From NCBI GenBank assembly GCA_965220085.1, contig CBDCOZ010000003.1, positions 1,664,001-1,728,000 of the forward strand: a stretch of 64,000 nt of DNA. Direction: 5' to 3'. A model generated the notes under the pieces. The model saw only the letters and a list, made by a program, of their open reading frames with translations, was not told the origin of the DNA and ran no database searches. The DNA comes from Candidatus Oxydemutatoraceae bacterium (GTDB lineage Bacteria > Pseudomonadota > Gammaproteobacteria > Poriferisulfidales > Oxydemutatoraceae). Position 1 is the first letter of the stretch; every line of letters begins with the position of its first letter. Shown here piece by piece: positions 10,966 to 55,640 of this stretch. A program made the position numbers and the translations under genes.

Positions 10966-12607
10966 CTACCGCAACGGGCCTTCCAGGAAAAGGCGCAGGC
11001 GCAAGCGCAAGCGTTGCTCCAGATTTATCGTGATGGTGGCGGCATGGGCGCTGGTATTGCGGGTGATGGGTTGGCCAGCGTCATCAAGGTCGCCGCTCGG
11101 TTCATCGCCATCGTCGGTTACTTTGAAGGTGAATGCGGCATAGCCGCTCTGGACGCTCTGCCCGTCCGCCGGCCAGTAGGCGATGGCGCCGATGTTGGCG
11201 GCGGCCACGCGCTGACCGACAGTGGCGTCGGCGCCGCCTACCCGCAGGGTGCCGGCATCCGGCAGGCTGGCAATCTCCACGCTGGCCAAGTTGTCGCCGT
11301 CCTCATCATCAAAGGGAAAGTCTCTGATTGCGAACCTGAAAGGCCGGTTCATCGTGGCATCCGCCGACACATTTATCGTGCGGTCCCGGGGTATGGGCGC
11401 ATCGCTGGCGTTGTGCACCCGGGCGGCGGCGGAGCACAGCCCCGTCACAGTCTCCGGCATGGCGTGAAGATCTCTATAACTGACGCAGACGCGGATGTAC
11501 AGGCCGATATGCTCCAGCATGGGGGTGAATGAATCGCCAGTGGTACCGGGTATGGCGGTGAAAGTGCCGTTTATGGCGGCGGATGACCGCCATTCCCACT
11601 CAAGTGTGCGCAAGTCTATGCCATTGGGCTCCACTATGCCCTCTCTTCTGGCAAACAGTGCGGTATCTTCGGCGTAGGTCGGGGCTTCAACAGCGGTGGG
11701 GTTGCCGGGGTTGGTGACTATGGTGGGCCTGCCGCTGGTGGCAACCTGGGCTGTCGATACCAGACGGATAAAGATTTGGTTGGTGGTTCTGGAGGCCATG
11801 TTGCTGGTGCCATCGCTGCCATCATCGGTCACACCGAAAGCGATGATATCGTACGAGGCATTGGCATCATCAGGGTCGGTGGGTTGCTGGCCCGGCTCCG
11901 GGTAATAGGTCAGAGCGCCGGCATTCAGTTGGGCCACAGTTATGGGGTTTTCGGGGACGGCGGTCAGGGCCGTGCCATTCAGGGCCAGGGTGCCATTATT
12001 GGGCACTCGATTCAGGGTGACACTGGCCAGCATGTCGTTATCGGCATCCTCAAAAGTGAAGTCGGTTGACGGGAGCACATAGGGGTTCGCGGAAGTGGCG
12101 GTGGTCGCCACCGAAATGAAGTTGGCGGTGGGCATCGGCCGGTCATTGATGTTGGCCACGGCGGTGGCTATCTGGTTGCATCGCTGCTCGTCATTGCCGC
12201 CGCTGTCGGTGAACGATGCGCAGACCCGCAGAAACTTGCCCACCTCGTCATCGCCCGGAGTGAAGGCGGCCCTGTCCGCGCCGACGATGTCGGTATAGAT
12301 GCCGCCATTGCTATCGGCCGCACTCCACTGCCAGGCCAGGGTGCCGACCGTGGTGGTTGGCGTATTGTCCGGGTCTTCTATGCCGCCTTGGGATGCGGTG
12401 ATGGCGGAGTCTTCGGTGGGAGCGGCTATGCCGCTGGCGTAGGCGACCATCGGCATGCCGGTAGCATTGTCCTGTGCCTGTGCTTGAGTAGATACGATGA
12501 GGAAAGCGAGCAACAAGAGCGGGCAGAGACCGCACCCGCTCAGGTCAATTCGGCACGGGGGGGGGGGGGGGGGGGGGGGGCATCAGTATTAAAATTTGTT
12601 GTTTCAT
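10966..12607 (-). CDS. FLEGPLR-tail family member 1: secreted tandem Ig/cadherin-like protein; frameshifted at G24 tract (uninterrupted ORF 10966-12516)
   Basis: AGGA-preceded ATG at 12607 (MKQQILILM) is 1 nt out of frame; C23 gives an open read into LLLAFLIVSTQAQA-Q. Two WQW..I.GA...FTP..DVG..RVC domains and two DF.F.DAD.D.LASV domains; ends RLRLRLRLFLEGPLR. Confidence 0.8.
12557..12580. repeat. G24 homopolymer (poly-C on coding strand) in leader of member 1
   Basis: Counted directly. Confidence 0.9.
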
Positions 12608-13126
12608 ATCTATTATTCCTATGACAGTCTGTATATCACGAATGCAGTCGTGCGATGAGTTCTGCGCACTCTGCCACAAAATGCAAGTCATCTATCAGTT
12701 TCTGTATCTCCTGCTTCTAGCAAATTTAATTATACGTTATATGTCCACAAACTGTTTGCAGACTGTTTAATATTGCACTATACCACAAGTTCGGTCATTT
12801 GCAAATTGGATTGAAATCTAGGTTTTATCTAGGTTTGTGTCGCACTATACCACAAAGTGCGAATCATGCAAGCGCTTGTTTGATGCCATGACATAGCGGA
12901 CATCTGGGGCAGACATTGTGTGTCATTGGCGCTTGCACGGTATCCATGGCAATGCAATCTCAGGATGCGTTGCCTTAAAACCCATGCCGACGCAAGGGTT
13001 CTGGAGCCTGATTCGTTATCCATGGCAATGCGCGCGATGCGCTGCCCTGAAACCCTTGCCAAGACGGGGCTTGCGGTGTGCTATGCCGCCCCCCAGAATA
13101 CTCGCCTGCTCCGCAGATTACTCGCG
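12582..13126. repeat. Upstream block, copy 1 of 3 (also 15378-15853 and 20276-about 20567)
   Basis: Near-identical AT-richer sequence precedes members 1, 3 and 7; copy 1 has an extra internal duplication of about 72 bp. Confidence 0.9.
12777..12871 (-). promoter_or_regulatory. Two tandem sigma70-like promoters (TTGCAW-N16-TATAGT with extended -10 TG)
   Basis: Minus strand reads TTGCATgattcgcactttgTGgTATAGT (12871-12844) and TTGCAAatgaccgaacttgTGgTATAGT (12804-12777); same pair at 15573-15667 and 20472-20566. Confidence 0.55.
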
Positions 13127-13978
13127 CTATCGCAACGGGCCTTCCAGGAAAAGGCGCAACCGCAAGCGTATATCAGGCGGCAACTGTGTCACCTGATGAG
13201 CGTCTGTGCTACACAGCGGCCCTTCCGATGCGGGCATGGAAAACTGATCCTTGAAAGAAACACAGGCGCGGACGTACCTGCCCAGTTGTGCGGCAGTCGG
13301 TGCGAAATCTGAGGAATAAGTAGCGCCCGCTATGTCGCTGTAAGCACTGGGTGCGGGAACACCGCTGGCGGGGGCGTCGGCCTGTTGCCACTGCCAACTC
13401 AAGGTGCTGACATCAATGCCGTTGAGGTCCGTCACACCGGTGATGGAAGCGCTAATCCGGTGCGTGTCTGTGGCGGTGGCGATTGCGGGCGCGCCGCTGG
13501 CGGCCGTCTGCGCGAGGGCCCCAATCAGATTGATGGTCATGGTGGCCTTGCTATCGACACCCCCAGTCTGTATCGCAAAGGTAAAACTGTCGTAACCGTT
13601 GGCGACAGAGATGGCAGTGACCGGGGGGGTGTAGGAGACACCCTGGCTACTACTCGTTCCGGTGAGGTCAGAGGCGAGGTATATAAATGTCTGACCATCA
13701 CCGTCACCTGCGAGTGCCACCATGATATTGGTCCGGATATCTATCAGCCTGCCATTGGCGGGGTAGGAGAAGACCAGCACAGCGCCACTGGTAAGACCGA
13801 AATCTGCGGCGGTGAAGTAATATGTGCCGCCGCCAATCGGGACATCAACACTCTGGTCTGTCGCCTGGGCATAAACATGGGTTGCGCCCAATGCCAAGGG
13901 CAGAATCAGCAGAATAAGCAACCGACGGCTAAGCCGGGTTAGTGTTCGGGGGGCAGTATCAAAAATTTGGCAGTTCAT
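13127..13978 (-). CDS. FLEGPLR-tail family member 2 (283 aa): signal peptide, variable domain, Cys-pair Ig domain
   Basis: AGGAGA RBS before ATG 13978; LLILLILPLALGATHVYA-Q signal; ends DIRLRLRLFLEGPLR. Confidence 0.85.
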   Translation of the reverse strand: MNCQIFDTAPRTLTRLSRRLLILLILPLALGATHVYAQATDQSVDVPIGGGTYYFTAADFGLTSGAVLVFSYPANGRLIDIRTNIMVALAGDGDGQTFIYLASDLTGTSSSQGVSYTPPVTAISVANGYDSFTFAIQTGGVDSKATMTINLIGALAQTAASGAPAIATATDTHRISASITGVTDLNGIDVSTLSWQWQQADAPASGVPAPSAYSDIAGATYSSDFAPTAAQLGRYVRACVSFKDQFSMPASEGPLCSTDAHQVTQLPPDIRLRLRLFLEGPLR

Positions 13979-14085
13979 AGTATTTCTCCTGATGGTTTGG
14001 GTTTCGTGAATGCGGTTGTGCAATGAGTCGCACCATCTCTTGTGCGCCTCATAACACTCTCCTTTTCCGCCGTAGGTTACTTGCA

Positions 14086-15404
14086 TCATCGCAGGGGGCC
14101 CTCAAGGAAGAGACGCAACCGCAAGCGCAGATTTGAGATGCCGCTATCCGCGCCAGTCTCTATGCCAAAGGTCAGTGTGCCTGTATCGCCGTCTGCGTCG
14201 GTGGCGGTGAGGGTATAGGCGGTCTTGGCAACCGTAGCGGTGGGGGTGCCGCTTATGGTGCGGGTGGCTGCGGTGAAACTGAGGCCCGCGGGCAAGGCCG
14301 GGGTCAGGCTGTATGTGACAGCGCCATTGCCGCCGGTCGCCGCAGGCAGAATCAAGTCGGTGATGGCCTTGCCGGTCACCCAGACCTGATCCGCCACCGA
14401 TGTATTGTCGAAGAAGGGCACATTGGATACCAGTACGCCAGTGCTACACAGCTCTGAGGATGCCGGAGCGGAGAACTGGTCCATGAATGCGGCGCAAACC
14501 CGCAGGTACTTGCTCGCGTGTGCGGCAAGGGGTGTGAAGTTTGAGGAAATTGTGCCTCTGGCAACGGTTATATCGCTGTAGGCACTGATTGCATTGGCGC
14601 CAACGCCTATCACATCGGCCTGCTGCCACTTCCAGGTCAGGGTGGCGACATCAATGCCGTTGGGCTCCGTCACACCGGCGATGGATGCCGTAAGCAGCAC
14701 ACCGGTGTTATAGGCGGTGGCGCCCATGGCGGCCGCAACAGTGGGCGCGCCGCTGGCGGCCGTCTGCGTGGATGCTCCCACCAGATTGATGGTCACGGTG
14801 GCCGTGGTATGGTTGGCACCGACATGCAACTCAAAGATGAAGCTGTCATAACCGTTGGCGACAGAGATGGCAGCGGTCGGGGGCCTGTATTCGACGGTTC
14901 CGACTCCAGTGGAGAACTCAATCGGGAAATATGCATCTGTATTATCGTCATCAACACTTGAAACGCCCACGTCTCGCACAAGACTGGTATCAAATAACCT
15001 GCCATGAGTGGGTTGGGTTTGGAACATCAGTATTTGGGAGTCAAGACCGCCGAAATCTATTTTCCTGAGCACATATCCGTTGCTTCCAATAGTGACATCA
15101 ACACTGGTGTCCGAGGCTTGAGCGTTAGCCTGTGTCGCGCCCAATGCCAGACACAGGACCAACAGGCAACGCATGAGCGGATCCGACCACAGTCCGGCAG
15201 GCAGGCGGACCGCAACAGACCGCAACCACGACAACAGACCGCGCACAGCCGGGCGGCGCGACCGCTTTGCGGATGGCGGGTTGCTATGTGCGGGTGATAA
15301 AAAACGGGTGAGAAGGCGATACGGCGAAACGCCGGCAATCCCCTTACTTACAAAGCTGCGGGGGGGGGGGGGGGGGGTATCAGTATTAAAATTTGTTGTT
15401 TCAT
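14086..15404 (-). CDS. FLEGPLR-tail family member 3: variable domain, Cys-pair Ig, He_PIG-like Ig; frameshifted at G18 tract (in-frame alternative ATG 15174)
   Basis: AGGAGAG-preceded ATG 15404 needs C16 or C19; LPAGLSF.AATRTISGTPT putative-Ig motif; ends NLRLRLRLFLEGPLR. Confidence 0.8.
15360..15377. repeat. G18 homopolymer in leader of member 3
   Basis: Counted directly. Confidence 0.9.
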
Positions 15405-15853
15405 ATCTGTCTCTCCTGTGACAGTCTGTATATCGTGAATGCAGTCGTGCGATGAGTGCGGTGTGCTCTGCACAAAATGCAAGTCATCTATCAGTTTCTG
15501 TATCTCCTGCTTCTAGCAAATTTAATTATACGTTATATGTCCACAAACTGTTTGCAGACTGTTTAATATTGCACTATACCACAAGTTCGGTCATTTGCAA
15601 ATTGGATTGAAATCTAGGTTTTATCTAGGTTTGTGTCGCACTATACCACAAAGTGCGAATCATGCAAGCGCTTGTTTGATGCCATGACATAGCGGACATC
15701 TGGGGCAGACATTGTGTGTCATTGGCGCTTGCACGGTATCCATGGCAATGCAATCTCAGGATGCGTTGCCTTAAAACCCTTGCCAAGACGGGGCTTGCGG
15801 TGTGCTATGCCGGTCCCCAGAATACTCGCCTGCTCCGTCGCAGATTACTCGCG

Positions 15854-17005
15854 CTATCGCAACGGACCCTCAAGAAAGAGCCGCAGCCGCAAGCGCAGAT
15901 TTGAGATGCCGCGATCCGCGCCCGTCTCTATGCCAAAGGTCAGCGTGCTTGTATCGCCGTCTGCGTCGGTGGCGGTGAGAGCATAGGCGGTCTTGGCAAC
16001 CGTAGCGGTGGGGGTGCCGCTGATGGTGCGGGTGGCTGCGGTGAAACTGAGTCCCGCGGGCAGGGCCGGGGTCAGGCTGTACGTGACAGCGCCATTGCCG
16101 CCGGTCGCCGCAGGCAGAACCAGGTCGGTGATGGCCTTGCCGGTCGCCCAGACCTGATCCGCCACCGATGTATTGTCGAAGAAGGGCACATTGGATACCA
16201 GTACGCCAGCGCTACACAGCGGCCCTTCCGATGCGGGCGTGGAGAACTGGTCCATGAATGCGGCGCAAACCCGCAGGTACTTGCTCGCGTGTGCGGCAAG
16301 GGGTGTGAAGTTTGAGGAAATTGTGCCTGTGACAGTGGTTATATCGCTGTAGGCGCTGATTGCATTGGCGCCAATGCCTATAATATCGGCCTGCTGCCAC
16401 TTCCATGCCAGAGTGCCGACATTGATGCCGTTGGGCTCAGTCACACCTGTGATGGAGGCAACCAGCGGCACACCGGTGTTATAGGCGGTGGCGGTTGTGG
16501 CGGCCGCAACAGTGGGCGCGCCGGTAGCGGTCATCTGCGTGAGTGCCCCCACCATGTTGATGGTCACGGTGGCCGTGGTATGGTTGCCACCGACATGCAA
16601 CTCAAAGATGAAGCTGTCATAACCGCTGACGACAGAGATGGCAGTGGCCGGGGGCCTGTATTCGACACGATGGGTTCCGCCAGAGAAATCGATCGGGAAA
16701 TATCCATCCGCCTGATCGCCATAAACACTTGAAACCGCCACGTCTCGCATATCATTGGTATTATACAACCTGCCATGAGTGGGTTGGGTTTGGTATCTCA
16801 GTGTTTGGGAAACAAAACCGCCGATATCTGTTTTCTCGAGTGTATACCCACTGCTTCCAATAGCGACATCAACACTGGTGTCCGAGGCTTGAGCGTTGGC
16901 CTGTGTCGCGCCCAATGCCAAGGGCAGAATCAGCGACCAGCGGCTAAGCCGCGTCATCGTTGCCCGCCGGTGCCGGGGGGCGGTATCAGAAATTGGGTAG
17001 TTCAT
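15854..17005 (-). CDS. FLEGPLR-tail family member 4 (383 aa), close paralogue of member 3 with a different leader
   Basis: AGGAGA RBS before ATG 17005; signal ..LPLALGATQANA-Q; He_PIG-like domain; tail motif. Confidence 0.85.
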   Translation of the reverse strand: MNYPISDTAPRHRRATMTRLSRWSLILPLALGATQANAQASDTSVDVAIGSSGYTLEKTDIGGFVSQTLRYQTQPTHGRLYNTNDMRDVAVSSVYGDQADGYFPIDFSGGTHRVEYRPPATAISVVSGYDSFIFELHVGGNHTTATVTINMVGALTQMTATGAPTVAAATTATAYNTGVPLVASITGVTEPNGINVGTLAWKWQQADIIGIGANAISAYSDITTVTGTISSNFTPLAAHASKYLRVCAAFMDQFSTPASEGPLCSAGVLVSNVPFFDNTSVADQVWATGKAITDLVLPAATGGNGAVTYSLTPALPAGLSFTAATRTISGTPTATVAKTAYALTATDADGDTSTLTFGIETGADRGISNLRLRLRLFLEGPLR

Positions 17006-17112
17006 CGTATTTCTCCTTCTGGTTTGGGTTTCGTGAATGCGGTTGTGCAATGAGTCGCACCATCTCTTGTGCGCCTCATAACATTCTCCTTTTCCGCCGT
17101 AGGTTACTCGCA

Positions 17113-17979
17113 TCATCGCAACGGGCCCTCAAGAAAGAGGCGCAACCGCAAGCGTATATCAGGCGGCAACTCTGTCACCTGAGTGCCGGCGCTACACAGC
17201 GGCCCTTCCGGTTCCGGCGTGTCATGCTGATCCATAAAAGAAACACAGGCGCGCACATACCTGCCCAGTTGGGCGGCAGTCGGTGCGAAGAGGGAAGAAG
17301 TGGCATCCTCTATGTCAACAATGTAGTCGCTGGGTGCGGGAACACCGCTGGCGGGGGCGTCGGCCTGTTGCCACTGCCAGCTTAGGGTGCCGACATCAAT
17401 GCCGTTGAGGTCCGTCACACCGGTGATGGAAGCGCTGATCCGGTGCGTGTCTGTGGCGGTGGTGATTTTGGGCGCGCCGCTGGCGTCCGTCTGCGTGGAT
17501 GCGCCCACCAGATTGATGGTCATGGTGGCCCTGATATGGTTGCCGAAGGAACGTGTCTCAAAGATGAAGCTGTCGTAACCGTTGACGACAGAGACGGCAG
17601 CGGCCGGGGGCCTGTACTCCATAGTACCGGTTCCGCCGGAGCCGGTGAAATCGGCGCTCCAGAAATGTGCATCCCCGCCATCATCATCACCTAAAACGTC
17701 CACGTCTCGGTTAAGAGAGACATTAAACACCCTGCCATGAGTGGGTTGGGAGTAGAGATACAAAGTTCCATGGGTGGATCCAAAACCGCCGAAATCTGTA
17801 CGCTTAAATACATATGCGCCGCCAATCGGGACATTAACACTGCTGGCTTGAGCTTGAGCGTTGGCCTGTGTCGCGCCCAATGCCAAGGGCAGAATCAGCA
17901 GAATAAGCGACCGGCGGCTAAGCCGGGTCATCGTTGTCCGCCAGCACCGGGGGGCAGTATCAAAAATTTGGCAGTTCAT
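17113..17979 (-). CDS. FLEGPLR-tail family member 5 (288 aa)
   Basis: AGGAGA RBS before ATG 17979; signal peptide; variable plus Cys-pair Ig domain; tail motif. Confidence 0.85.
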   Translation of the reverse strand: MNCQIFDTAPRCWRTTMTRLSRRSLILLILPLALGATQANAQAQASSVNVPIGGAYVFKRTDFGGFGSTHGTLYLYSQPTHGRVFNVSLNRDVDVLGDDDGGDAHFWSADFTGSGGTGTMEYRPPAAAVSVVNGYDSFIFETRSFGNHIRATMTINLVGASTQTDASGAPKITTATDTHRISASITGVTDLNGIDVGTLSWQWQQADAPASGVPAPSDYIVDIEDATSSLFAPTAAQLGRYVRACVSFMDQHDTPEPEGPLCSAGTQVTELPPDIRLRLRLFLEGPLR

Positions 17980-19680
17980 AGTATTTCTCCTAATGGTTTG
18001 GGTTTCGTGAATGCGGTTGCAATGAGTCGCACCATAAACAATCCGCAAACAGTTGATGGAGCACAATACTTAATTGTTTGTGCCTCATTAAATGTTGCTT
18101 GTGTACATAACTCACAAAGCGCAAGTCATCCACAAGTATCTTTGTATCCTGTCTCATCCTCTTGTGCACCTCATAACTATCCTTCTCCGCAGCTACGCAC
18201 TACCGCAACGGGCCTTCAAGGAAAAGGCGCAGGCGCAGGCGTATATCAGGCGGTAGCTCTGTCACCCGAGTGCCGGCGCTACACAGCGGCCCTTCCGGTT
18301 CCGGCGTGTCATGCTGATCCATAAAAGAAACACAGGCGCGCACATACCTGCCCAGTTGGGCGGCAGTCGGTGCGAAGAGGGAAGAAGTGGCATCCTCTAT
18401 GTCAACAATGTAGTCGCTGGGTGCGGGAACACCGCTGGCGGGGGCGTCGGCCTGTTGCCACTGCCAGCTTAGGGTGCCGACATCAATGCCGTTGAGGTCC
18501 GTCACACCGGTGATGGAAGCGCTAATCCGGTGCGTGTCTGTGGCGGTGGTGATTTTGGGCGCGCCGGTAGCGGCCGTCTGCGTGGATGCTCCCACCAGGT
18601 TGATGGTCATGGTGGCCATCGTATCGACACCCCCAGTCAGTATCGAAAAGGTAAAACTGTCGTAACCGTTGGCGACAGAGATGGCAGTGGCCGGGGGTGT
18701 GTAGGAGACACCCTGGCTGTTAGCCGTTCCGGTGAGGTCAAAAGCGAAGTATGCAAACGTCTGACCATCACCGTCACCTGCGAGTGCCACCATGATATTG
18801 TTCCGGATATCTATCAGCCTGCCATTGGCGGGGTGGGAGAAGAACCGCACAGCGCCACTGGTAAGACCGAAATCTGCGGCAGTAAAGTAATATGTGCTGC
18901 CGCCAATCGGGACATTAACACTCTGGTCCGTCGCCTGGGCATAAACATAGGTTGCGCCCAATGCCAAGGGCAGAATCAGCAGAATAAGCGACCGGCGGCT
19001 AAGCCGGGTCATCGTTGTCCGCCAGCACCGGGGGGCAGTATCAAAAATTTGGCAGTTCATAGTATTTCTCCTAATGGTTTGGGTTTCGTGAATGCGGTTG
19101 CAATGAGTCGCACCATAAACAATCCGCAAACAGCTGATGGAGCACAATACTTAATTGTTTGTGCCTCATTAAATGTTGCTTGTGTACATAACTCACAAAG
19201 CGCAAGTCATCCACAAGTATCTTTGTATCCTGTCTCATCCTCTTGTGCACCTCATAACTATCCTTCTCCGCAGCTACGCACTACCGCAACGGGCCTTCAA
19301 GGAAAAGGCGCAGGCGCAGGCGTATATCAGGCGGTAGCTCTGTCACCCGAGTGCCGGCGCTACACAGCGGCCCTTCCGGTTCCGGCGTGTCATGCTGATC
19401 CATAAAAGAAACACAGGCGCGCACATACCTGCCCAGTTGGGCGGCAGTCGGTGCGAAGAGGGAAGAAGTGGCATCCTCTATGTCAACAATGTAGGCGATG
19501 GGTGCGGGAACACCGCTGGCGGGGGCGTCGGCCTGTTGCCACTGCCAGATTAGGGTACCGACATCAATGCCGTTGAGGTCCGTCACACCGGTGATGGAAG
19601 CGCTAATCCGGTGCGTGTCTGTGGCGGTGGTGATTTTGGGCGCGCCGGTAGCGGCCGTCTGCGTGGATGCCCCAACCATG
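17875..19680. repeat. Near-identical direct repeat of about 720 bp, period 1081 (about 17875-18600 and 18956-19680)
   Basis: Starts 17979/19060 and stops 18200/19281 are both 1081 apart, with matching intervening text. Confidence 0.9.
18200..19060 (-). CDS. FLEGPLR-tail family member 6 (286 aa)
   Basis: AGGAGA RBS before ATG 19060; variable domain of member-2 type; 3' half nearly identical to members 5 and 7. Confidence 0.85.
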   Translation of the reverse strand: MNCQIFDTAPRCWRTTMTRLSRRSLILLILPLALGATYVYAQATDQSVNVPIGGSTYYFTAADFGLTSGAVRFFSHPANGRLIDIRNNIMVALAGDGDGQTFAYFAFDLTGTANSQGVSYTPPATAISVANGYDSFTFSILTGGVDTMATMTINLVGASTQTAATGAPKITTATDTHRISASITGVTDLNGIDVGTLSWQWQQADAPASGVPAPSDYIVDIEDATSSLFAPTAAQLGRYVRACVSFMDQHDTPEPEGPLCSAGTRVTELPPDIRLRLRLFLEGPLR

Positions 19681-20302
19681 TTGATGGTCATGGTGGCCGT
19701 GGTCTCGACGCCACCTCTAAGTATCACGAAGATGAAGCTGTCATAACCGTTGACGTCAGAGATGGCAGCGGTCGGGGGCCTGTATTCGATATCACCGGTT
19801 CCGCCAGAACCAGAGAAATCGCCCCAGAAATATGTATCCAAAAAGCCATCATCAACACCTGAAACGGCCAAGTTTTCGTTAAGAGAGACATCAAACACCC
19901 TGCCATGAGTGGGTTGGGTGTAGAGAAACAAACTTCTGCCGGATCCAAAACCGCCGAAATCCGTACGCTTGAATACATATGCGCCGCCAATCGGGACATT
20001 AACACTGCTGGCTTGAGCCTGAGCGTTGGCCTGGGTTGCGCCCAATGCCAGGCACAGGGCCAGCAGGCAACGCATGAGCGGACCCGACCACAGTCCGGCG
20101 GGCAGGCGGACCGCAACAGACCGCAGCCACAACAACAGACCGCGCACAGCCGGGCGGCGCGACCGCTTTGCGGATGGCGGGTTGCGATGTGCGGGTGATA
20201 AAAAGCGGGTGAGAAGGCGATACGGCGATACGCCGGCAATCCCCTTACTTACAAGGCTGCGGGGGGGGGGGGGGGTATCAGTATTAAAATTTGTTGTTTC
20301 AT
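19281..20302 (-). CDS. FLEGPLR-tail family member 7; frameshifted at G15 tract (in-frame alternative ATG 20075)
   Basis: AGGAGAG-preceded ATG 20302 needs C16 or C13; variable domain of member-5 type; tail motif. Confidence 0.8.
20261..20275. repeat. G15 homopolymer in leader of member 7
   Basis: Counted directly. Confidence 0.9.
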
Positions 20303-20642
20303 ATCTATCTCTCCTATGACAGTCTGTATATCGTGAATGCAGTCGTGCGATGAGTTCTGCGCACTCTGCCACAAAATGCAAGTCATCTATCAGTTTCTGT
20401 ATCTCCTGCTTCTAGCAAATTTAATTATACGTTATATGTCCACAAACTGTTTGCAGACTGTTTAATATTGCACTATACCACAAGTTCGGTCATTTGCAAA
20501 TTGGATTGAAATCTAGGTTTTATCTAGGTTTGTGTCGCACTATACCACAAAGTGCGAATCATGCAAGTGCCTTTGTATCCTGCCTCTCTCCCCTTGTGTG
20601 CGCCCCCAGAATACTCGCCTGCTCCGCCGCCGGGTATTCGCA

Positions 20643-20735
20643 TTATCGCAGGGGACCTTCAAGGAAGAGGCGCAGGCGCAAGCGTATATCAGGCGGCAAC
20701 TCTGCCACCAGACTGCCTGTGCTACACAGCGGCCT
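20643..20735 (-). pseudogene. Orphan 3' fragment of an FLEGPLR-tail gene (PLCSTGSLVAELPPDIRLRLRLFLEGPLR)
   Basis: Last 30 or so codons match the ends of members 2/5/6/7; upstream sequence is unrelated and lacks a signal peptide. Confidence 0.8.
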
Positions 20736-29432: not shown

Positions 29433-30770
29433 ATGGCGACAAAGAAGCGAAAACCAGTACGCAAAAGACAACCCTCAACGAAGAAATTGACACGCGGGAA
29501 GAAGGCGGCGCGCAAAAAGGCAACCAAGCGCAAGACCGTTGCCGCTACAAAGAAGGCAACGCGCAAGAAGGTAACCAAGCGCAAGACCGTTGCCGCTACA
29601 AAGAAGGCAACGCGCAAAAAGGCAACCAAGCGCAAGACCGTTGCCGCTACAAAGAAGGCAACGCGCAAGAAGGTAACCAAGCGCAAGACCGTTGCCGCTA
29701 CAAAGAAGGCAACGCGCAAGAAGGCAACCAAGCGCAAGACCGCTGCCGCTACGAAGAAGGCAACGCGCAAAAAGGTCACCAAGCGCAAGACCTCTGCCGC
29801 TACAAAGAAGGTAGCACGCAAGAAGGTCACCAAGCGCAAGACCGCTGCCGCTACGAAGAAGGCAACGCGCAAAAAGGTCACCAAGCGCAAGACCTCTGCC
29901 GCTACAAAGAAGGTAGCACGCAAGAAGGTAACCAAGCGCAAGACCTCTGCCGTCAAAAAGAGGGCAACGCGCAAGAAGGTAACCAAGCGCAAGACCGTTG
30001 CCGTCAAAAAGAAGGCAACGCGCAAAAAGGTAACCAAGCGCAAGACCTCCGCCGCCAAAAAGAGGGTCACGCGCAAAAAAGTAACCAAGCGCAAGACCTC
30101 CGCTACTAAAAAGAGGGTCACGCGCAAAAAAGTAACCAAGCGCAAGACCTCTGCTACCAAAAAGAGGGTCACGCGCAAAAAAGTAACCAAGCGCAAGACC
30201 TCCGCTACCAAAAAGAGGGTCACGCGCAAAAAAGTAACCAAGCGCAAGACCTCTGCTACCAAAAAGAGGGTCACGCGCAAGAAGGCGCCGCAGAAGAAAA
30301 GAGCCGCATCCGGCCGGAAGGCAACGGCGGCACCCGCAAAGAAATCAAGCGCCAGAATGATTGCGTCGGCAAAGAAGGCGCGGAAAACGCATTCTCGCCA
30401 CTATATGACGCCAAAACAACTGGAGATGTTCAAAGAGAAGCTCATTGCATGGAAAAAAGAACTGATGCAAGAGGCGGACCGAACCGTCGTGCATATGCAG
30501 GAAGAGTCATCGACTTTTGCCGACTCAAATGACCGCGCAACGCAAGAAGAAGAATTCGGACGCGAACTAAAAAGCCGCGACCGGGAAAGAAAGTTGATTA
30601 AAAAGATAAATGAAGCGCTGATGCGGATAGACAACCATGAATTTGGCTACTGCGAAGAGTGCGCGGCGCCGATCGGTATCACGAGGCTGACCGCCCGTCC
30701 TATCACCACCATGTGCATAGACTGCAAGACCTTGGCCGAAGTGATGGAAAAGCAAGCCTCCCATGTTTAA
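29433..30770 (+). CDS. dksA: DksA with a Lys/Arg/Ala/Thr histone-H1-like N-terminal extension of about 320 aa
   Basis: C-terminal YM...QL..F, DSNDRATQEEEF..EL..RDRERKLI.KI and CEEC...CIDCK zinc finger. Confidence 0.92.
   Translation: MATKKRKPVRKRQPSTKKLTRGKKAARKKATKRKTVAATKKATRKKVTKRKTVAATKKATRKKATKRKTVAATKKATRKKVTKRKTVAATKKATRKKATKRKTAAATKKATRKKVTKRKTSAATKKVARKKVTKRKTAAATKKATRKKVTKRKTSAATKKVARKKVTKRKTSAVKKRATRKKVTKRKTVAVKKKATRKKVTKRKTSAAKKRVTRKKVTKRKTSATKKRVTRKKVTKRKTSATKKRVTRKKVTKRKTSATKKRVTRKKVTKRKTSATKKRVTRKKAPQKKRAASGRKATAAPAKKSSARMIASAKKARKTHSRHYMTPKQLEMFKEKLIAWKKELMQEADRTVVHMQEESSTFADSNDRATQEEEFGRELKSRDRERKLIKKINEALMRIDNHEFGYCEECAAPIGITRLTARPITTMCIDCKTLAEVMEKQASHV
29499..30284 (+). 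repeat. 51-bp (17-aa) coding tandem repeat, 15 full copies plus a partial
   Basis: Units KKATRKKVTKRKTVAAT grading into KRVTRKKVTKRKTSATK. Confidence 0.95.
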
Positions 30771-35405: not shown

Positions 35406-36524
35406 CTACCGCAACGGGCCTTCAAGGAAGAGCCGCAACCGCAAGCGCACGGGGCGCATCGGGTCTATGGCGAAGGTCAGCGTATCGGTCTCTCCGTCCA
35501 CATCGGTGGCGGCATAGGCGTATCGGATTATGGCGGATGCCGTCGTAGGTGTGCCGCTGATGGTGCGGGTGTCGGCATCAAAGGCGAGGCCGTCGGGCAG
35601 GGCCGGGCTTATGCTGTAGGCGGTGTTATTGCCGCCGGCGGCTGCGGGCAATACCAGAGGTGTGGTCGTGCCGGGCGGCCAAATCCGGGTGCCCACCGTT
35701 GCATCGCCAAAGTCGGGCGCGCTGTTTGCCACCAGATTGATGGTTATCGTGGCGGCAGGGCCAACGCCATAAGGCCCATCCGCTCCTGCCAGGAAATCAA
35801 ATCTGGCGTAATCACTGCCGACAGTGGCATCGGCGGGCGGCGCGTATGTGACTCCCTCGCTTGAAATGAATTCGTGTCCGAACACAGCGATAGGCAACGA
35901 GGAGTAAGTATCTCCGCTGATTCTAAGAATGCCATCGGCGGGAAGACTTTCAAGGAAAAGGCTGACTTGTCCATAATCAGCGCCCTCTTCGTCCTCATGG
36001 CGAAAGTCGCTGAGGCGAAATCGCGATGTGCGGCCAACCGGGAAGTCGACGCTGCTGGGCAGGGCATTGATATCATTGAGGTTGACCACCGCCGCAGCGG
36101 AAGTCCAGCAACGGGTCTCGCGGTTGCCGGCATCATCGTCAAAGGTAGCACATACACGCAGAAACTTGCCCACATGCTCCTGCAGGGGCGTGAAAGTCGC
36201 GGCGGTGGCGCTTGCTATGTCCGCGAAGGAACCGCCGGCTGTTTCGCCCTGTTGCCACTGCCAGGCGGGGCTGAAGTTGGCTATGCCATCGGTGGTGTCG
36301 GCTATGCTGCCTCGGGCCGCGGTCAAGTGGATGTCCTCATTGGGGCCGCCGCTCACGGCGCTGCCGTCCGCCGTGACCGTGACCGCCGGTGTGCCGGTGG
36401 CGTTCTGCGCCTGCGTCGGTGCGCAGACAACAAACAGCGCCGACAGAATCAGCGCCCGGAGGCTAAGCCGGGTGAGCGCTGTCCGCCAGCGCCGAGGGGC
36501 GGTATTAGAAATTTGTCGCTTCAT
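35406..36524 (-). CDS. FLEGPLR-tail family member 8 (372 aa): Cys-pair Ig, variable domain, He_PIG-like domain
   Basis: GGGAGA RBS before ATG 36524; signal ..LILSALFVVCAPTQA-Q; ends PVRLRLRLFLEGPLR. Confidence 0.85.
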   Translation of the reverse strand: MKRQISNTAPRRWRTALTRLSLRALILSALFVVCAPTQAQNATGTPAVTVTADGSAVSGGPNEDIHLTAARGSIADTTDGIANFSPAWQWQQGETAGGSFADIASATAATFTPLQEHVGKFLRVCATFDDDAGNRETRCWTSAAAVVNLNDINALPSSVDFPVGRTSRFRLSDFRHEDEEGADYGQVSLFLESLPADGILRISGDTYSSLPIAVFGHEFISSEGVTYAPPADATVGSDYARFDFLAGADGPYGVGPAATITINLVANSAPDFGDATVGTRIWPPGTTTPLVLPAAAGGNNTAYSISPALPDGLAFDADTRTISGTPTTASAIIRYAYAATDVDGETDTLTFAIDPMRPVRLRLRLFLEGPLR

Positions 36525-36815
36525 AGTATTTCTCCCAATAGTTTGTGTTTCGCGAATGCGGTTGCGCAATGCGTTGCACTGTAAACAATCTGCAAACAGT
36601 TAATGGAGCACAAACAACTTAAGAAGCCACAAACAGTTTATGGAACACAAACAATATAATTGTTTGTGCCTCTTATTTTTGTGCCTCATTAAATGTTGTT
36701 TGTGTACATTAAGCAATCCGCAAACAACTGAGTTGTTTGTGTACATACTCCGCATCCTGTCCCATCCTCTTGTGCGCCTCATAACACTCTCCTTCTCCGC
36801 CGCCGGTCACTCGCG

Positions 36816-37622
36816 CTACCGCAACGGGCCTTCAAGGAAGAGCCGCAACCGCAAACGCACGGGGCGCATCGGGTCTATGCCGAAGGTCAGCGTATCGGTC
36901 TCCCCATCCGCATCGGTGGCGGTGAGGGTGTGTCGGATCATGGCGGATGCCGTCGTGGGCGCGCCGCTGATGGTGCGGGTGTCGGCATCAAAGGCGAGGC
37001 CGTCGGGCAGATCCGGGGTGATTGCGTAGGTGATGGCGCCATTGCCGCCGGTGGTTGCGGGCAATACCAGAGGTACGGTCGTGCCGGGCGGCCAAATCCG
37101 GGTGCCCACCATTGCATCGCCAAAGTCGGGCGCGCTATTGGCCACCAAGTTGATGGTCATGGTGGCAGTAGTACCTAATCTTGTGCCCTGAGCCTCCGCA
37201 CCGAAGACAAATCTGGCGTAATCACTGCCGACAGTGGCATCGGCGGGCGGTGTGTATGTTATTCCCTCGCTTGAAGCGAATTCGACCCTGAACAGAGAGA
37301 CGAATGTGTTTTGGCCTCCTTGGGCAATAGCTCCCTTGATTCTAAGAGTGCCATCGGCAGGAAGATTTGGAAGGATAAAGTCGGGTTGCGGATAATCAGA
37401 GCCATCTTCGGCTTCATGACGAAAGTCGCTGAGACGGAAACGCGATGTGCGACCAACCGCGAAGTCGACACTGCTGGGCAGGCTGTTAATCACAGTGACG
37501 TTCTGCGCCTGCCCCGGTTCGCAGACAACAAACAGGACCGGCAGAGCCAGTGTCCAGAGGCTAAGCCGGGTGAGCGCTGTCCGCAAGCGCCGGGGGGTAG
37601 TATTAGAAATTTGTCGTTTCAT
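36816..37622 (-). CDS. FLEGPLR-tail family member 9 (268 aa): variable domain plus He_PIG-like domain
   Basis: AGGAGA RBS before ATG 37622; signal peptide; LPDGLAFDADTRTISG; tail motif. Confidence 0.85.
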   Translation of the reverse strand: MKRQISNTTPRRLRTALTRLSLWTLALPVLFVVCEPGQAQNVTVINSLPSSVDFAVGRTSRFRLSDFRHEAEDGSDYPQPDFILPNLPADGTLRIKGAIAQGGQNTFVSLFRVEFASSEGITYTPPADATVGSDYARFVFGAEAQGTRLGTTATMTINLVANSAPDFGDAMVGTRIWPPGTTVPLVLPATTGGNGAITYAITPDLPDGLAFDADTRTISGAPTTASAMIRHTLTATDADGETDTLTFGIDPMRPVRLRLRLFLEGPLR

Positions 37623-37798
37623 AGTATTTCTCCTAATAGTTTGTGTTTCGCGAATGCGGTTGCGCAATGCGTTGCACTGTAAACAATCTGCAAACAGTTA
37701 ATGGAGCACAAACAACTGAGTTGTTTGCGCACACATCTGGTATCCTGTCCCATCCTCGTGTGCGCCTCATAACTCTCCTCCGCCGCCGGTCACTCGCA

Positions 37799-38750
37799 TT
37801 ACCGCAACGGGCCTTCAAGGAAGAGCCGCAACCGCAAACGCACGGGGCGCATCGGGTCTATGCCGAAGGTCAGCGTATCGGTCTCCCTATCCGCATCGGT
37901 GGCGGTGAGGGTGTATTCGGCGGCAGCGGATTCCGCCATGGGTGTGCCGCTGATGGTGCGGGTGTCGGCATCAAAGGTCAGGCCGTCGGGCAGAGCCGGG
38001 GCGACTGTATAGGTGATGGGGCCATTGCCGCCGGTGACTGCGGGCAATATCAGAGGCGCGGTCGTGCCGGGCGGCCAAATACGGGTGCCCGCCGTTGCAT
38101 CGCCAAAATCGGGCGCGCTGTTTGCCACCAGATTGACGGTCACGGTGCCCGTGGTATGGCTGCCACCGACATGTAACTCAAAGATGAAGCTGTCATAACC
38201 GTTGACGACAGAGATGGCAGTAATCGGGGGCCTGTATTCGACGGGTCCGACTCCGGCGGAGAAGTCACTCGCGACATATGTGCTTAGCTGACCGCCACCT
38301 CCGCTTGAAAGCGACACGTCTCGCTGAGGTATGGTATCAAACAACCTGCCATGAGCGGGTCGGGTTTGGAACAACAGTGTTTGGGAGACAAAACCGCCGA
38401 TATCTGTTTTCCTGAGCGCATATCCGCTGCTTCCAATAGCGACATCAATGCTGGTGTCCGAGGCTTGAGCGTTGGCCTGTGTCGCGCCCAATGCCAAGCA
38501 CAGGGCCGGCAGGCAGCGCATGAGCGAACCCGACCGCAACCCGGCGACCGGGCGCACCGCAACAGACCGCAGCCACAGCAACAAACCGCGCACAACCGGG
38601 CGGCGCGACCGCTTTGCGGATGGCGGGTTGCTATGCGCGGGTGATAAAGAACGGGTGAAAAGGCGATACGGCGAAACGCCGGCAATCCCCTTACTTACAA
38701 AGCTGCGGGGGGGGGGGGGGGGGGGTCAGTATTAAATTTTTTCTGTTCAT
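37799..38750 (-). CDS. FLEGPLR-tail family member 10; frameshifted at G19 tract (in-frame alternative ATG 38521)
   Basis: ATG 38750 (MNRKNLILT) needs C18 or C21; leader and variable domain like members 3/4, He_PIG-like domain like members 8/9. Confidence 0.8.
38707..38725. repeat. G19 homopolymer in leader of member 10
   Basis: Counted directly. Confidence 0.9.
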
Positions 38751-38960
38751 GGTATTACTCTTAAATGGCAATCTGCATCTCGCGAATGCAGTTGCGTAAT
38801 CAATGCCGGTACTCTGCCACACAGCGCGAGTCATGTGCAAGCGCCTGTTTGATGCCATGAATCCGGAATGTTTCCGGCATGATTCAAACGCCTTGCCTGA
38901 GAGAAACAAGATGACTTCGCTATGACCCGCCGCCCGCTGTGAATGCCCATTCGTTCCGAC

Positions 38961-51620: not shown

Positions 51621-53547
51621 ATGAAACGAGAGTCTTTTAATACCCCCCCCCCCCCCCCCCCTGAACGGGCGGGCAACACTAACCCGGTTTAGCCTCCGGT
51701 CGCTCATTCTGCCGACCCTGTTTGTTATCTGCGCTCAGGCACAGAGCGCGCCTGTGGCTCAGGACAAAACCATCGATGTTCAGGTGGGCGATACGTTTTA
51801 CACCTTCACGGCGGATGACTTCCCGATAACCGATGCAGACGGTGATGATGGTCTGGCAGTTGGCAGTCGCATATACGTGGAGAGCTTGCCTGTTTCCGGC
51901 AGTAACGCACGAGGTAACTTGGTCACTGCGCCTCTTGGCGCCCGCGTAGTTTTAAGCACGGGAGATTTCGCCACCGAATCCCGCCTCCGGGCAGGCGAGT
52001 TCAGGTACGAGTTGTCCCCCGGTGCCACGAATGTTGTCAGCGGTTATGCCACTTTCACCTATAGCTACTCGGCCGATGAGGGCGCTACCCGTAGCAACAC
52101 CGCCACCATCACCATCAACCTGGCGAGGATGCAGACGCAGATGCCGGCAACCGGCGCGCCCACTGTGACGGCGCCGATGGGCAACACAGTCTGGGACGAG
52201 GATGCGCTCCACACCGCCACTGCTCGCGGTATCAGAGACCCCAATGGCTTTAGCGTCACAGAAGTCACCTGGCAGTGGCAACAGGCCGTCGTCGCCGACG
52301 GGGCAACCCCGGCGGACAGCGACTACGCCAATATTGCCGCGGACACCGCCACCTTTCTCTCCACCACATTCACACCGCTACAGGCACATGTGGGGAACTA
52401 CATACGGGTGTGCGCATCCTTCCCGGACAGCATCGTACCGGCCGTCCGCGAGCGACGTTGCACCGCAGGCAATGTCATCGCCAATGTCAACGATGCCCCG
52501 GTTGCGCAGAACAACACCATCTTTGTGCCGGTAGGCAGCAGTTATGCCTTCTCGGCGGGCGACTTCCCGTTCACAGATGAAGACGACGATGCGTTGGACG
52601 GAGTTGTCCTACAGACCATACCCGCCAACGGCGCCCTGAGCAGGGGTAGCACGGCTTTGACTGGCAGTCAGGTTCCCAGAACTGTAGCGCTGGATGATAT
52701 AGGCGCCATCAGCTACACAGCGACCGGTCAGAACCCGAGCGCAGGCTACGCCACTTTCACATTCAATGTGGTTGACGCCGGCAACGATGGTGTCAGCAAC
52801 AAGAACAGCACCAACACCGCCGCCATGACCATAGACCTGGTGCCGTCCGCGCCATCGGCGGCAACCGGCGCACCGACGGTGACGGCGGCATCGGGCGCCG
52901 CCTACAACGAAGGCGCGGAACTGACCGCAGCTATTGGCGACGTAGCCGATGCCAACGGCATCCCTGCCCACGGTCAGATGACGTGGCAATGGCAACAGTC
53001 CGCCACCACGGCCACCGACACATACGAAAACATAGCCGGAGCCACCGGCGCCGCCTTCGTGCCCGGGCGGGAACATGTCGGCCAATACATCCGCGCCTGC
53101 CTCGGTTTCACCGACGGCATAGGCGCCGCCGAGATGCGCTGCTCCGCCGGCAACATCATTGTCAGAGTCAATTCGGTGAGTGTGCCGATTACCGCCGACG
53201 CAAACGCGCCCTATACTTTCAAGCTATCCGACTTTATATTTCCGGGCGATGACATTGACAATCTGGTCAGCATCACCATAGTCACCACGATAGCATCGGG
53301 CAAGGGCATATTTCGCAACGACGGCGCCGCAGTAACCGCCAACACCACAGTGACCGCTGCCGGCCTGCGCAACGGCGACCTCACTTTCTATCCCCCGGCC
53401 AACACCGCCGCCGCCGATAGCTTTGCCAGTTTCACCTATACCGTGAACTATGGAGGCGCCAACACCGCCACCCGCACGATGAACATCAATCTGGCGGAGC
53501 GCCTGCGCTTGCGGCTGCGCCTGTTCCTCGAAGGGCCGTTGCGATAG
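51621..53547 (+). CDS. FLEGPLR-tail family member 11, five-domain Ig/cadherin-like; frameshifted at C19 tract (uninterrupted ORF 51754-53547)
   Basis: GAGGAG RBS before ATG 51621; C18 restores MKRESFNT-Pn-LNGRATLTRFSLRSLILPTLFVICAQAQS signal; C19 stops at TAG; tail motif. Confidence 0.82.
51643..51661 (+). repeat. C19 homopolymer in leader of member 11
   Basis: Counted directly. Confidence 0.9.
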
Positions 53548-53714
53548 CGCGAGCGCCGCCTCGCAGGATTTGCGCCTAGCACGCTCCCTCGCGGGAAGCG
53601 TATCGGGAGGCCGAAAAGCAGATAGACAAAGGGGAAGCCCTGGCCTGCTTTCAAAAAGCCCTCGCATCCTGATATAATGAGACTTATGCAAACAACCAAC
53701 TTACAAACTTAATA

Positions 53715-53915
53715 ATGGACGATTTATACAGAAACACTACGACCGCGATGGAAGAAGCCGGAGCGGACTCGGATTACATAATCGGATGGCAAGGAGGTTA
53801 CCTCGGTCATCCCGCCCGTGAAAAACAGCGCGCATCGGAAGCCTATCTTGCGGGATATGCCGACGGACAGGAAAAGAACACTGCCAACTACGAGAAATGG
53901 GCTGACAACAAATGA
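53715..53915 (+). CDS. Alvin_2107-like protein, copy 2 (identical protein)
   Basis: Same 66-aa translation as 51202-51402; one synonymous GGC/GGT difference seen. Confidence 0.7.
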   Translation: MDDLYRNTTTAMEEAGADSDYIIGWQGGYLGHPAREKQRASEAYLAGYADGQEKNTANYEKWADNK

Positions 53916-54133
53916 ACCCGCCCGCTTCAAACAGACCTCCGGATTGCCATTGCGATGACAACAGCGCGAGTACCGCGCGGCGGAGAAAGAAAGTGTCAGA
54001 GGGAACGCAAGAGGTGCGACAGGATACGAAGTCACTTGCAAGTGACGCGCACTGTGTGGCAGGCTACGGCACTAAGAGTAGCAACACGCATTGCATAAAC
54101 ATTCGCTAAACACGAACCATGAGGAGAGAGACT

Positions 54134-55460
54134 ATGAAACGAGAGCCTTTTAATACCCCCCCCCCCCCGGCGCAGGAGCCTGCACCACTTATGGTCGCTG
54201 GCACTGCTCGCCCTTTTCATCTTATCCACCCAGGCCCAACCGCACAGCAACCACGCTCCCGACAGCCCGGTTGTTCTGGGTCTGATTAAGCCGAACGCCA
54301 GCAATAAAAATGTATGGGTGTTGCCCACTGCCACCGCCGACAGCCCGTACACTTTCAAGACGAACGACTTTCCTTTTTTTGACCGTGACGGCGATACCCT
54401 GACCAGGGTCACCATAAAGAGCCTGCCATCCGCCGGAACCATGCTGGTGGACGGTTCCGCCGCCACTCAGGGGCAGAATGTGGCAACCGCCGACATCGGC
54501 ACCATCAAATACTATCCGGCACCGGGACAGTCCGCACAGGCCAACTACGCCAGCTTCACATTCAGCGTCACGGCTGGCGGTCAGGAATCCGGCAATGGCA
54601 CAATCACCATCAATCTTATCGCAACCGAGCAAGTCCCAGCCACCGGCTCGCTCGCACTATTTCTACTGCACGGCAGCGATACAAGCGCATTAGATGAGGA
54701 TACGCCATTAGAGGAGGATATACCATTAGGCATATCAGGTTTTTTCAGCATTGTCGACCTCAACACCATACCTAGCGGCGCACTGACAAGCCTCAAATTT
54801 AAATGGCAACAATCCGCCACCCGGGGCGGCCAATTCACAGACATCACTGATACCAGTCTCGGAAACCCCAATTTCACCCCTCTGCAAATCCATGTGGGCA
54901 CATACATACGCGGCTGTGTCGTCTTTCTGGACGGACATGCCACCCCCAACCTTGAGACGGTGTGCTCCGCAGCTGGTCAGGTAACGAATAGAGGCGACCA
55001 GCCCGTGGGCGGCCCCAGCACTGTTAAGGTGCCAACTAATGCCATACCCACTAAGCCGCACCGCTTTGCGCGGACGGACTTTCCCTTTTCCGATGAGGAT
55101 GGCGACACCATCAATGGCATTCGCATAACCGCCCCGCCCACCAGAGGCACCCTGGTGGTGCGGGCGGGCGATTCCAGCACCGCCATAGCCATAGGCGCCG
55201 AGCTGACCCTGGCCCAGATGAATGCCCTGGCATACTATCCGGAACCCAATGCCCCCGCTGGTGCGGGCTATGCGACATTCACATACAGAGTGCGGGATAC
55301 TGGCACTGTAAGCACCCAGGTCTTAAGATGCATAGGGACTGATTGCAGTCAATATGCTGGCAGCACCAACGAGGCCGACACCGATTCCACCCTCACCATA
55401 GACCTGATAAACACAATCCGCCTGCGGTTGCGCGTTTTCCTTGAGGGGCCGTTGCGGTAG
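54134..55460 (+). CDS. FLEGPLR-tail family member 12; frameshifted at C13 tract (uninterrupted ORF 54318-55460)
   Basis: GAGGAG RBS before ATG 54134; C12 restores ..RRRSLHHLWSLALLALFILSTQA-Q signal; ends IRLRLRVFLEGPLR. Confidence 0.82.
54156..54168 (+). repeat. C13 homopolymer in leader of member 12
   Basis: Counted directly. Confidence 0.9.
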
Positions 55461-55640
55461 CGCGAGCAATTCTCGCGAGGCGGGTGCCTAGCACATTCCC
55501 CTCGCCGCGAGAGTCGGCAGGAATAGGGCGAAGCCGCCGCCATTACCATGCGTGAAACGGCAATGTTTGAGCGCGATGAAACAAGCGATGAAACAGCGCC
55601 GTTTCACAACACCCTCCGTCGCCGGTCAGGCGGAGTCAAG

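Follow-up and report, generated by a model that had tools for sequence, protein, structure and literature searches.

Near-identical blocks and divergent first-domain cassettes alternate in a tandem array of modular, putatively secreted proteins from an Oxydemutatoraceae bacterium

Introduction

How does one domain stay diverse when the DNA on either side of it is almost the same from gene to gene? The question is raised by a tandem array of six genes, m2 to m7, on the minus strand of a 64-kb stretch of the genome of Candidatus Oxydemutatoraceae bacterium (64,000 nucleotides (nt) of contig CBDCOZ010000003.1; this whole stretch is called the window, and all positions refer to it). The variable part is the first domain (D1) of the encoded proteins, and its flanks comprise the leader on one side and the second domain (D2), the C-terminal tail and the intergenic spacer on the other. 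The explanation that best covers the whole of our results, and which we hold with modest confidence, is a family of secreted proteins built as strings of modules, in which the flanks recombine, D1 cassettes are reassorted and expression is stochastic.

Results

Constant and variable segments alternate along the array

According to the listing of open reading frames (ORFs) and the translation of the members, all six genes are complete (Table 1). Their proteins consist of a long leader, D1 (about 114 residues), D2 (about 105) and a tail (...RLRLRLFLEGPLR) followed directly by the stop codon, with a He_PIG domain added in m3 and m4. Leaders are of two types, type 1 reading MNCQIFDTAPR...MTRLSRRSLILLILPLALGAT..AQA and type 2 ending in MRCLLALCLALGATQANAQA.

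An earlier sequence-only reading of the locus had described a kilobase-scale alternation of constant blocks and variable segments, and this is borne out: the two constant blocks, each of 739 nt, agree at 723 of 739 positions (97.8%), and the D1 segments, 342–348 nt long, are 66–92% identical overall. Neighbouring genes can differ most, with 65.8% identity in D1 both for m5/m6 and for m6/m7, while m2 and m6 reach 91.5% and m5 and m7 reach 83.3% in an ungapped comparison, or about 91% in one that admits three in-frame indels. Self-BLAST of the window returned kilobase-scale matches. The framework motifs listed earlier for the first domain were found again, and the estimate by eye of roughly 16 replacement and 5 silent changes between the D1 of m2 and m6 stands close to our recount over 114 codons, in which 17 codons change the amino acid and 7 differ synonymously only. 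D2 is near-identical in m5, m6 and m7, as claimed, with 5, 5 and 9 differences in 315 nt. The period of 1081 nt given for members 5–7 holds for m6–m7 only, since stop-codon positions place m5 and m6 1087 nt apart. The near-constancy of the 'constant' part is limited to m5–m7: part of D2 in m2 is merely 58–82% identical to that of other members, and m3 and m4 carry a different D2 class besides the additional He_PIG domain.

D1 cassettes are mosaic units with old classes and recently homogenised flanks

D1 sequences fall into three discrete classes that are common to non-adjacent genes: class A in m2 and m6, class B in m5 and m7, and class C in m3, m4 and b3. The last belongs to a second array 20 kb away and matches m3 across leader and D1 at 84% identity over 712 nt. 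The two leader types and at least two D2 classes combine independently of D1 class. Along 253 polymorphic sites, m6 agrees with m5 in the leader, with m2 through D1, and with both m5 and m7 through D2. Stretches of unbroken concordance reach 40–54 polymorphic sites at the longest (permutation p = 0.0002). The borders of the mosaic are sharp and fall at the end of the signal peptide (directly after LGAT) and at the junction of D1 and D2 (between TMTINLV and GAS). This pattern points to recombination or gene conversion among paralogs.

Synonymous divergence (dS) among m5, m6 and m7 was 0.65–0.80 in D1 and 0.03–0.05 in D2 (for m5/m6, 0.655 and 0.039). Because dS is so much higher in D1 than in D2, the flanks were homogenised recently and the D1 classes are old. 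The sharp mosaic borders and the low dS of D2 relative to D1 support the proposal of the sequence-only reading that the constant blocks serve as recombination substrates.

Inside D1, the longest exact match is 18–24 nt between classes and 43–47 nt within a class. For RecA-dependent recombination, exact matches as short as 18–24 nt are poor substrates, and the short inter-class matches alone could halt conversion tracts at the D1 borders. Homologous recombination between paralogs, by gene conversion or unequal crossing-over, would then generate the alternation of constant and variable segments. Exchanges would begin in the conserved stretches (leader, D1/D2 junction and D2-tail-spacer), keeping these near-identical, and would end at D1; as exchange between classes would be halted there by the shortness of their exact matches, D1 cassettes would reassort as units and remain diverse.

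Selection on D1 and the neutral alternative

Concerted evolution might produce the same alternation with no adaptive role: gene conversion or unequal crossing-over would recently have homogenised the D2-tail-spacer-leader stretch in m5–m7, and D1, too diverged for conversion with inter-class matches of this length, would drift under relaxed constraint and have no special part in binding. We regard this purely neutral account as rather unlikely, and the substitutions in each module bear on it from both sides. We summed Nei–Gojobori counts over three independent within-class pairs. The ratio of nonsynonymous to synonymous changes per site (pN/pS) was 0.97 in D1 (0.95 after realignment), not distinguishable from 1, as drift would have it; it was 0.49 in D2 (p = 0.0008 versus neutrality) and 0.15 in the part after D2, tail included (p = 4e-9 versus neutrality). 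Nonsynonymous changes relative to synonymous ones were about twofold more frequent in D1 than in D2 (Fisher odds ratio 2.2, p = 0.009), and pairwise dN/dS in D1 ranged from 0.72 to 1.60. The faster amino-acid change of D1, about twice that of D2, would fit a module that faces a ligand or the environment.

When the columns of D1 were divided according to how well 15 paralogs lying outside the window conserve them, the framework columns proved to be under purifying selection (pN/pS 0.39), and the remaining columns stood at 1.25. Purifying selection on the framework and the intactness of all seven D1 copies argue against drift alone, as do codon site models. In D1, M1a fits far better than M0, and without the indel patch M2a improves on M1a with a likelihood-ratio test statistic (LRT) of 13.0 (p = 0.0015), placing 37% of sites in a class with omega 3.2; none of 33 simulations under the M1a null reached 13 (maximum 6.2), and the D2 control gave an LRT of 0 and an omega of 0.43. 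D1 is also the most diverse module among 19 aligned D1-D2-tail proteins, with a mean amino-acid identity of 38.6%, against 65.9% in D2 and 91.6% in the tail.

Several results weigh against an adaptive role of D1 variation. Pooled dN/dS in D1 does not exceed 1, and the excess over 1 in its variable columns is not significant (one-sided p = 0.17). The M0, M1a and M2a models were self-written and applied to only seven sequences, which recombine, and recombination and multi-nucleotide changes can inflate the M1a/M2a test. First LRT values of 55.8 on the full tree and 31.7 on within-class clades were discarded as inflated, because two compensating 3-nt indels, revealed by a nucleotide alignment in the patch with the strongest sites, had been forced into an ungapped codon alignment. 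The candidate D1 sites are scattered over strands and loops and are not enriched in loops, strands holding 12 of 23 flagged and 35 of 74 unflagged sites (p = 0.81). The presence of D1-type modules at internal positions in other family members is likewise compatible with drift. We conclude that a subset of D1 sites is probably under diversifying selection, which is suggested and not established. What stands of the earlier claim is that the site models place some sites of D1, and none of D2, at an omega above 1; a pooled ratio above 1, or a significant excess in the variable partition, was not found.

Other possible sources of the variation

In antigenic variation of the pilE/pilS or vlsE type, one expressed gene is fed by promoterless, incomplete silent donors. 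Such a system would also have D1 flanked by conserved recombination substrates, and one truncated remnant of a family gene does occur, at the edge of the array. Every array member is nevertheless complete, with Shine–Dalgarno sequence, ATG, signal peptide, tail and stop codon, which makes silent cassettes very improbable.

If D1 were a target of hypermutation, as by a diversity-generating retroelement, the system would be truly antibody-like and variation would be concentrated in one domain between conserved anchors, as seen here. We give this little credence: a scan of the 40 larger non-family ORFs revealed no reverse transcriptase (ORFs below about 150 residues were not all covered), the substitutions follow an ordinary spectrum in which transitions dominate, showing neither an adenine bias nor a signature of directed mutagenesis, and the three D1 classes are discrete and old, with a dS of 0.6–0.8 between them. 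Mis-joining or collapse of the repeats in assembly is a scarcely credible source of chimeric units, even though near-identical blocks of about 740 bp are hard to assemble and homopolymers are error-prone, given that the frames of all units are intact, 16 of 739 positions distinguish the constant blocks, tails and D2 hold many synonymous differences, the contig spans 2.05 Mb and the same architecture recurs in independent contigs.

A lineage-restricted family of modular proteins

A word-indexed search with m6 returned 47 relatives, 38 of them on one 2,046,636-bp contig and the rest on four others. Profiles of D1, D2 and the He_PIG-type module (HP) resolved the module orders D1-D2, D1-D2-HP, D1-HP, D2-D1-D2, D1-D2-D1 and D1-D2-D1-D2-D1, so that D1 is not always N-terminal and D2 is no fixed stalk; in some members D1-type modules stand mid-protein or directly before the tail. 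The antibody-like variable domain on a constant stalk that had been proposed for the array is not supported by these comparisons, in which D1 forms three discrete classes, takes internal and tail-proximal positions, and has neither loop-enriched candidate sites nor a directed-mutagenesis signature.

The family alignment was also run against one genome each of 185,579 species. It gave 11 raw pattern matches, none of them confirmed; because about 20 raw matches would be expected by chance (a rough estimate), we take the family to be absent from those species representatives. We conclude that this is a lineage-restricted family of presumably secreted proteins, in which a long leader of Sec type precedes a string of Ig-like modules and the C-terminal peptide is invariant.

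As for the identity of the modules, He_PIG (PF05345) was matched in m3 (46.4 bits) and m4 (43.1 bits; cut-off 24) and in b1–b3; it is absent from m2, m5, m6 and m7. No Pfam threshold was reached by D1 or D2 of the array members, and m2, m5, m6 and m7 had no Pfam match at E ≤ 0.1. In c2, a family gene elsewhere in the window, the D1-type module matches Big_9 (PF17963) at 28.5 bits against a cut-off of 23.6, and the D1 profile covers the same region. Matches to Big_9/Cadherin_4/He_PIG clusters in a feature atlas (score 0.87) are a lead only. The AlphaFold2 model of D1 is all-beta, a beta-sandwich with a predicted local distance difference test score (pLDDT) of about 80–90 over residues 41–158, and its best Foldseek matches in the PDB are Ig-like (pilins and the PKD domain of AAVR), none at E ≤ 0.001. 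A sequence search of the PDB with the D1 profile gave only two antibody heavy-chain variable regions at E 0.04–0.06, which is chance level and was rejected as evidence of any antibody relationship.

A PDB sequence search with the D2 profile found nothing. An exhaustive search with D2 plus tail gave 1363 representatives at E ≤ 1e-3, mostly giant proteins of up to 6600 residues with 2–52 D2 repeats. Their matches end before the tail (before query residue 120), and only small family proteins match to the last residue. D2 is weakly like Ig domains of the SCAB-Ig/AIR9 type (7 of 29 members match, best E 8e-6, below the cut-off). No member belongs to ZirU (NF040485), for which the best score was 30.2 bits (m1, in a D2-like stretch only) against a cut-off of 100. 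On these matches, D1 appears to be a bacterial cadherin/Big_9-like module and D2 a widespread repeat of giant surface proteins.

An invariant C-terminal tail

The invariant tail peptide, RLRLRLFLEGPLR, is 13 residues long and precedes the stop codon directly. Five more genes of the window carry it (b1, b2, b3, c1 and c2), and its DNA pattern has 10 matches in the window where 0 are expected. It ends 57 of 59 proteins examined, both exceptions being cut off on short contigs, and is present in 63 of the 187 proteins collected. Across 13 tail copies, the last 13 codons all have synonymous variants and all three stop codons are used, while the amino acid stays the same in every copy at 12 of the 13 positions. 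Because the codons vary synonymously and the amino acids stay, we conclude that constraint on the peptide itself is strong.

No NCBIfam sorting-signal model was matched by any of 12 members, a PDB search gave no solved structure matching the tail by sequence, and the motif was not found in the literature searched. The tail has no hydrophobic helix; Leu and Arg alternate along it, a pattern that suggests an amphipathic strand, and it ends in FLEGPLR. It may be a sorting or anchoring signal, and no partner enzyme for it was identified in the window.

Poly-C tracts and the upstream element

The 64 kb contain only six G/C runs of at least 8 nt, and all six lie directly behind the conserved ribosome-binding site (RBS) and ATG of family genes, as poly-C on the coding strand (Table 1). 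As assembled, all six ATGs stand in a different frame from their genes; the frame would be restored by a change of +1 or −2 nt in m1, b3, c1 and c2, and of −1 or +2 nt in m3 and m7. In m1, c1 and c2 the hydrophobic core of the signal peptide is preceded by no further ATG. In m3, m7 and b3 an internal ATG precedes a normal-looking signal peptide, and no Shine–Dalgarno sequence was seen before it. The same leader is in frame in paralogs elsewhere, where it includes 5–8 prolines (P0036, P0043, P0047, P0078 and P0151), and the post-tract frame of c1 aligns to residues 19–87 of P0036 (E = 2e-14). Database entries for many members of the family begin within the signal peptide or beyond it, which is what a broken frame would be expected to make gene callers produce.

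The poly-C genes m1, m3 and m7 are preceded by a repeated element of about 430 bp whose copies are 96–98% identical. It carries a promoter-like TTTGCA-17-TGnTATAGT (extended −10) and a duplicated 'cttgtggtatagtgc' box, and has no match in Rfam at E ≤ 1. Among the array genes, promoter-like sites occur only in this element, upstream of tract genes; the others follow their neighbours at 108–220 nt without one. As the element precedes tract genes only, it suggests the transcription units [m7 m6 m5 m4], [m3 m2] and [m1], a putative operon structure. The tracts have the anatomy of slipped-strand contingency loci, which suggests phase variation as a candidate mode of control: in the head gene of each unit, the poly-C separates the start codon from the signal peptide, and there slippage would switch the frame. 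Expression would then probably be stochastic.

A 15-nt motif, GCAAACAGTTNRTGG, occurs 10 times where 0.04 occurrences are expected, always in spacers of the family arrays and in both orientations. It may be the binding site of a regulator.

Surroundings of the array and other repeats in the window

The neighbours of the array are ordinary chromosomal genes (isocitrate lyase, rraA, pnp, msrP-like, isc genes and hemH). With a GC content of 0.67 at third codon positions, against 0.675 for 14 housekeeping genes, the family has a native look, and codon composition gives no indication of foreign origin. The closest PNPase genes, at 68–70% identity, come from gammaproteobacterial metagenome-assembled genomes named Candidatus Oxydemutator and Candidatus Porisulfidus, names that occur in papers about sponges and hydrothermal settings. 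The remnant next to rraA is the truncated edge of the array. No Rfam match at gathering thresholds, no tRNA gene and no Neisseriaceae DNA-uptake sequence was found in the window.

Other repeats lie apart from the family genes or adjoin them. In a DksA homologue the N-terminus is extended by about 300 residues, made up of 15.4 copies of a 51-nt repeat (17 residues each), its consensus rich in AAG/AAA and GCN codons. Just after c2, a 64-nt unit is repeated in tandem 6.6 times (97% matches), and the ORF that comes next has an HNH endonuclease domain. Two copies of a 276-nt unit (93% matches) extend over the 3' end of the ferrochelatase gene, and a tandem array of a 67-nt (or 200-nt) unit runs past the end of the window.

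Table 1. Features of the 64-kb window, with positions counted from its first nucleotide.
Feature	Position	Strand	Description
m1	10966..12607	-	family gene at downstream end of array; longer; order D2-x-D2-D1-tail; 24-nt poly-C 12557-12580 in leader
m2	13127..13978	-	type-1 leader (MNCQIFDTAPR...), D1 class A 13523-13864, D2, tail
m3	14086..15404	-	RBS and ATG 15378-15404; poly-C 15360-15377 (18 nt); internal ATG 15174; D1 class C 14779-15117; D2; He_PIG; tail
m4	15854..17005	-	type-1 leader, D1 class C 16550-16888, D2, He_PIG, tail
m5	17113..17979	-	type-1 leader, D1 class B 17506-17853, D2, tail
m6	18200..19060	-	type-1 leader, D1 class A 18593-18934, D2, tail
m7	19281..20302	-	RBS and ATG 20276-20302; poly-C 20261-20275 (15 nt); internal ATG 20075; D1 class B 19674-20018; D2; tail
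Constant block 1	17854..18592	-	m6 D2, tail, 220-nt spacer, m5 leader
Constant block 2	18935..19673	-	m7 D2, tail, spacer, m6 leader
3' remnant of family gene	20643..20735	-	last ~30 codons with tail (...PLCSTGSLVAELPPDIRLRLRLFLEGPLR, then stop); upstream array edge, adjoins rraA
Upstream element, three copies	12563-12988, 15360-15784, 20261-20570	-	precedes m1, m3 and m7
Second array of the same family (b1, b2, b3)	35406..38752	-	head gene b3; 19-nt poly-C 38707-38725
Further family genes (c1, c2)	51621..55460	+	each with RBS, ATG and poly-C: 51643-51661 (19 nt), 54156-54168 (13 nt)
Motif GCAAACAGTTNRTGG sites	12745-12759, 15541-15555, 18045-18059, 19126-19140, 20440-20454, 35088-35139, 36592-36643, 37690-37704		
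DksA homologue	29433-30770	+	51-nt repeat at 29499-30285
64-nt tandem repeat	55640-56062		
HNH endonuclease-domain ORF	56109-56684	+	
Ferrochelatase gene	56702-57784		
276-nt unit, twice	57551-58109		
67-nt (or 200-nt) tandem repeat array	63412-64000		

Discussion

The array is a clean natural example of how sequence divergence can confine gene conversion to the flanks of a cassette, and a domain so enclosed can stay diverse whether or not selection acts on it. The Opa proteins of Neisseria are eight-stranded outer-membrane barrels with variable loops, and their genes carry a CTCTT repeat in the signal-peptide region. The present proteins differ in being soluble-looking strings of Ig-like modules with a 13-residue tail, encoded in tandem arrays with apparent operons and a homopolymer instead of a pentamer; no Opa or outer-membrane-protein model of Pfam or NCBIfam was matched, and there is no sequence relationship. 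The likeness lies elsewhere: in the many-locus Opa system, conserved segments alternate with variable ones that form cluster types and are reshuffled by recombination, conversion produces near-identical alleles and a coding repeat sets the frame (PMC13183285), and to that extent both are many-copy families in one small genome, with a repeat in the leader region. The resemblance to Opa is functional only.

Other likenesses are partial too. With Ig-like and cadherin-like repeat proteins (Big_9, Cadherin_4/5, He_PIG) and giant adhesins the family shares He_PIG, Big_9 and D2 modules, but its proteins are of 260–600 residues with one to five modules, form a multigene family and bear the invariant tail. 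Homopolymeric contingency genes are known from the poly-G in the signal-peptide region of Neisseria pilC and from the poly-G genes of Campylobacter. Like these, the tract genes have a long G/C homopolymer just after the start codon, in which a one-base change shifts the downstream frame; they differ in that the tracts are unusually long (13–24 nt), encode poly-proline in an extended leader, head multi-gene units and were each seen at one length. Families with C-terminal sorting signals (PEP-CTERM, LPXTG, GlyGly-CTERM and the C-terminal domain of the type IX secretion system) likewise place an invariant signature on dozens of diverse secreted paralogs, whereas the tail described here has neither a hydrophobic helix with a basic cluster nor an 80-residue domain and is a 13-residue Arg/Leu strand.

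Taken jointly, these features could describe a reduced-genome, uncultivated gammaproteobacterium with dozens of genes for a combinatorial surface repertoire of a new type: short, reshuffled Ig-like strings, export by an extended leader, a new 13-residue C-terminal signal (RLRLRLFLEGPLR-COOH), poly-C switching of whole units and continual reassortment of a positively selected distal domain. We put this joint reading forward tentatively, as possible and short of probable. Beyond the doubts about selection, some points count against the explanation that we favour. The secretion and surface display of the proteins and ligand binding by D1 are predictions from sequence, and the D2 model is of low confidence (pLDDT below 50). 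Phase switching is likewise predicted, from assembled sequence, in which homopolymer lengths are unreliable, so that the out-of-frame state of all six tract genes may be sequencing error. Genes m3, m7 and b3, with their internal ATG, could be expressed whatever the length of the tract. Promoter-like matches in the region barely exceed those in shuffled sequence (10 versus 6.3 ± 2.3).

For annotation, many members of the family have probably been called as truncated in error, their leader tracts breaking the frame. The tail, if it is what we propose, would be an unrecognised C-terminal signal common to 60 or more proteins; it is short and invariant, can easily be tested, and might lead to a new route by which Gram-negative bacteria sort or anchor proteins. 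The wider picture is more interesting than the alternation with which this work began: a modular family, restricted to one lineage and probably phase-variable, whose C-terminal signal is undescribed. If the joint reading is true, the lineage would possess an Opa-like or Vsp-like variable surface system where none is known, built on a different protein architecture.

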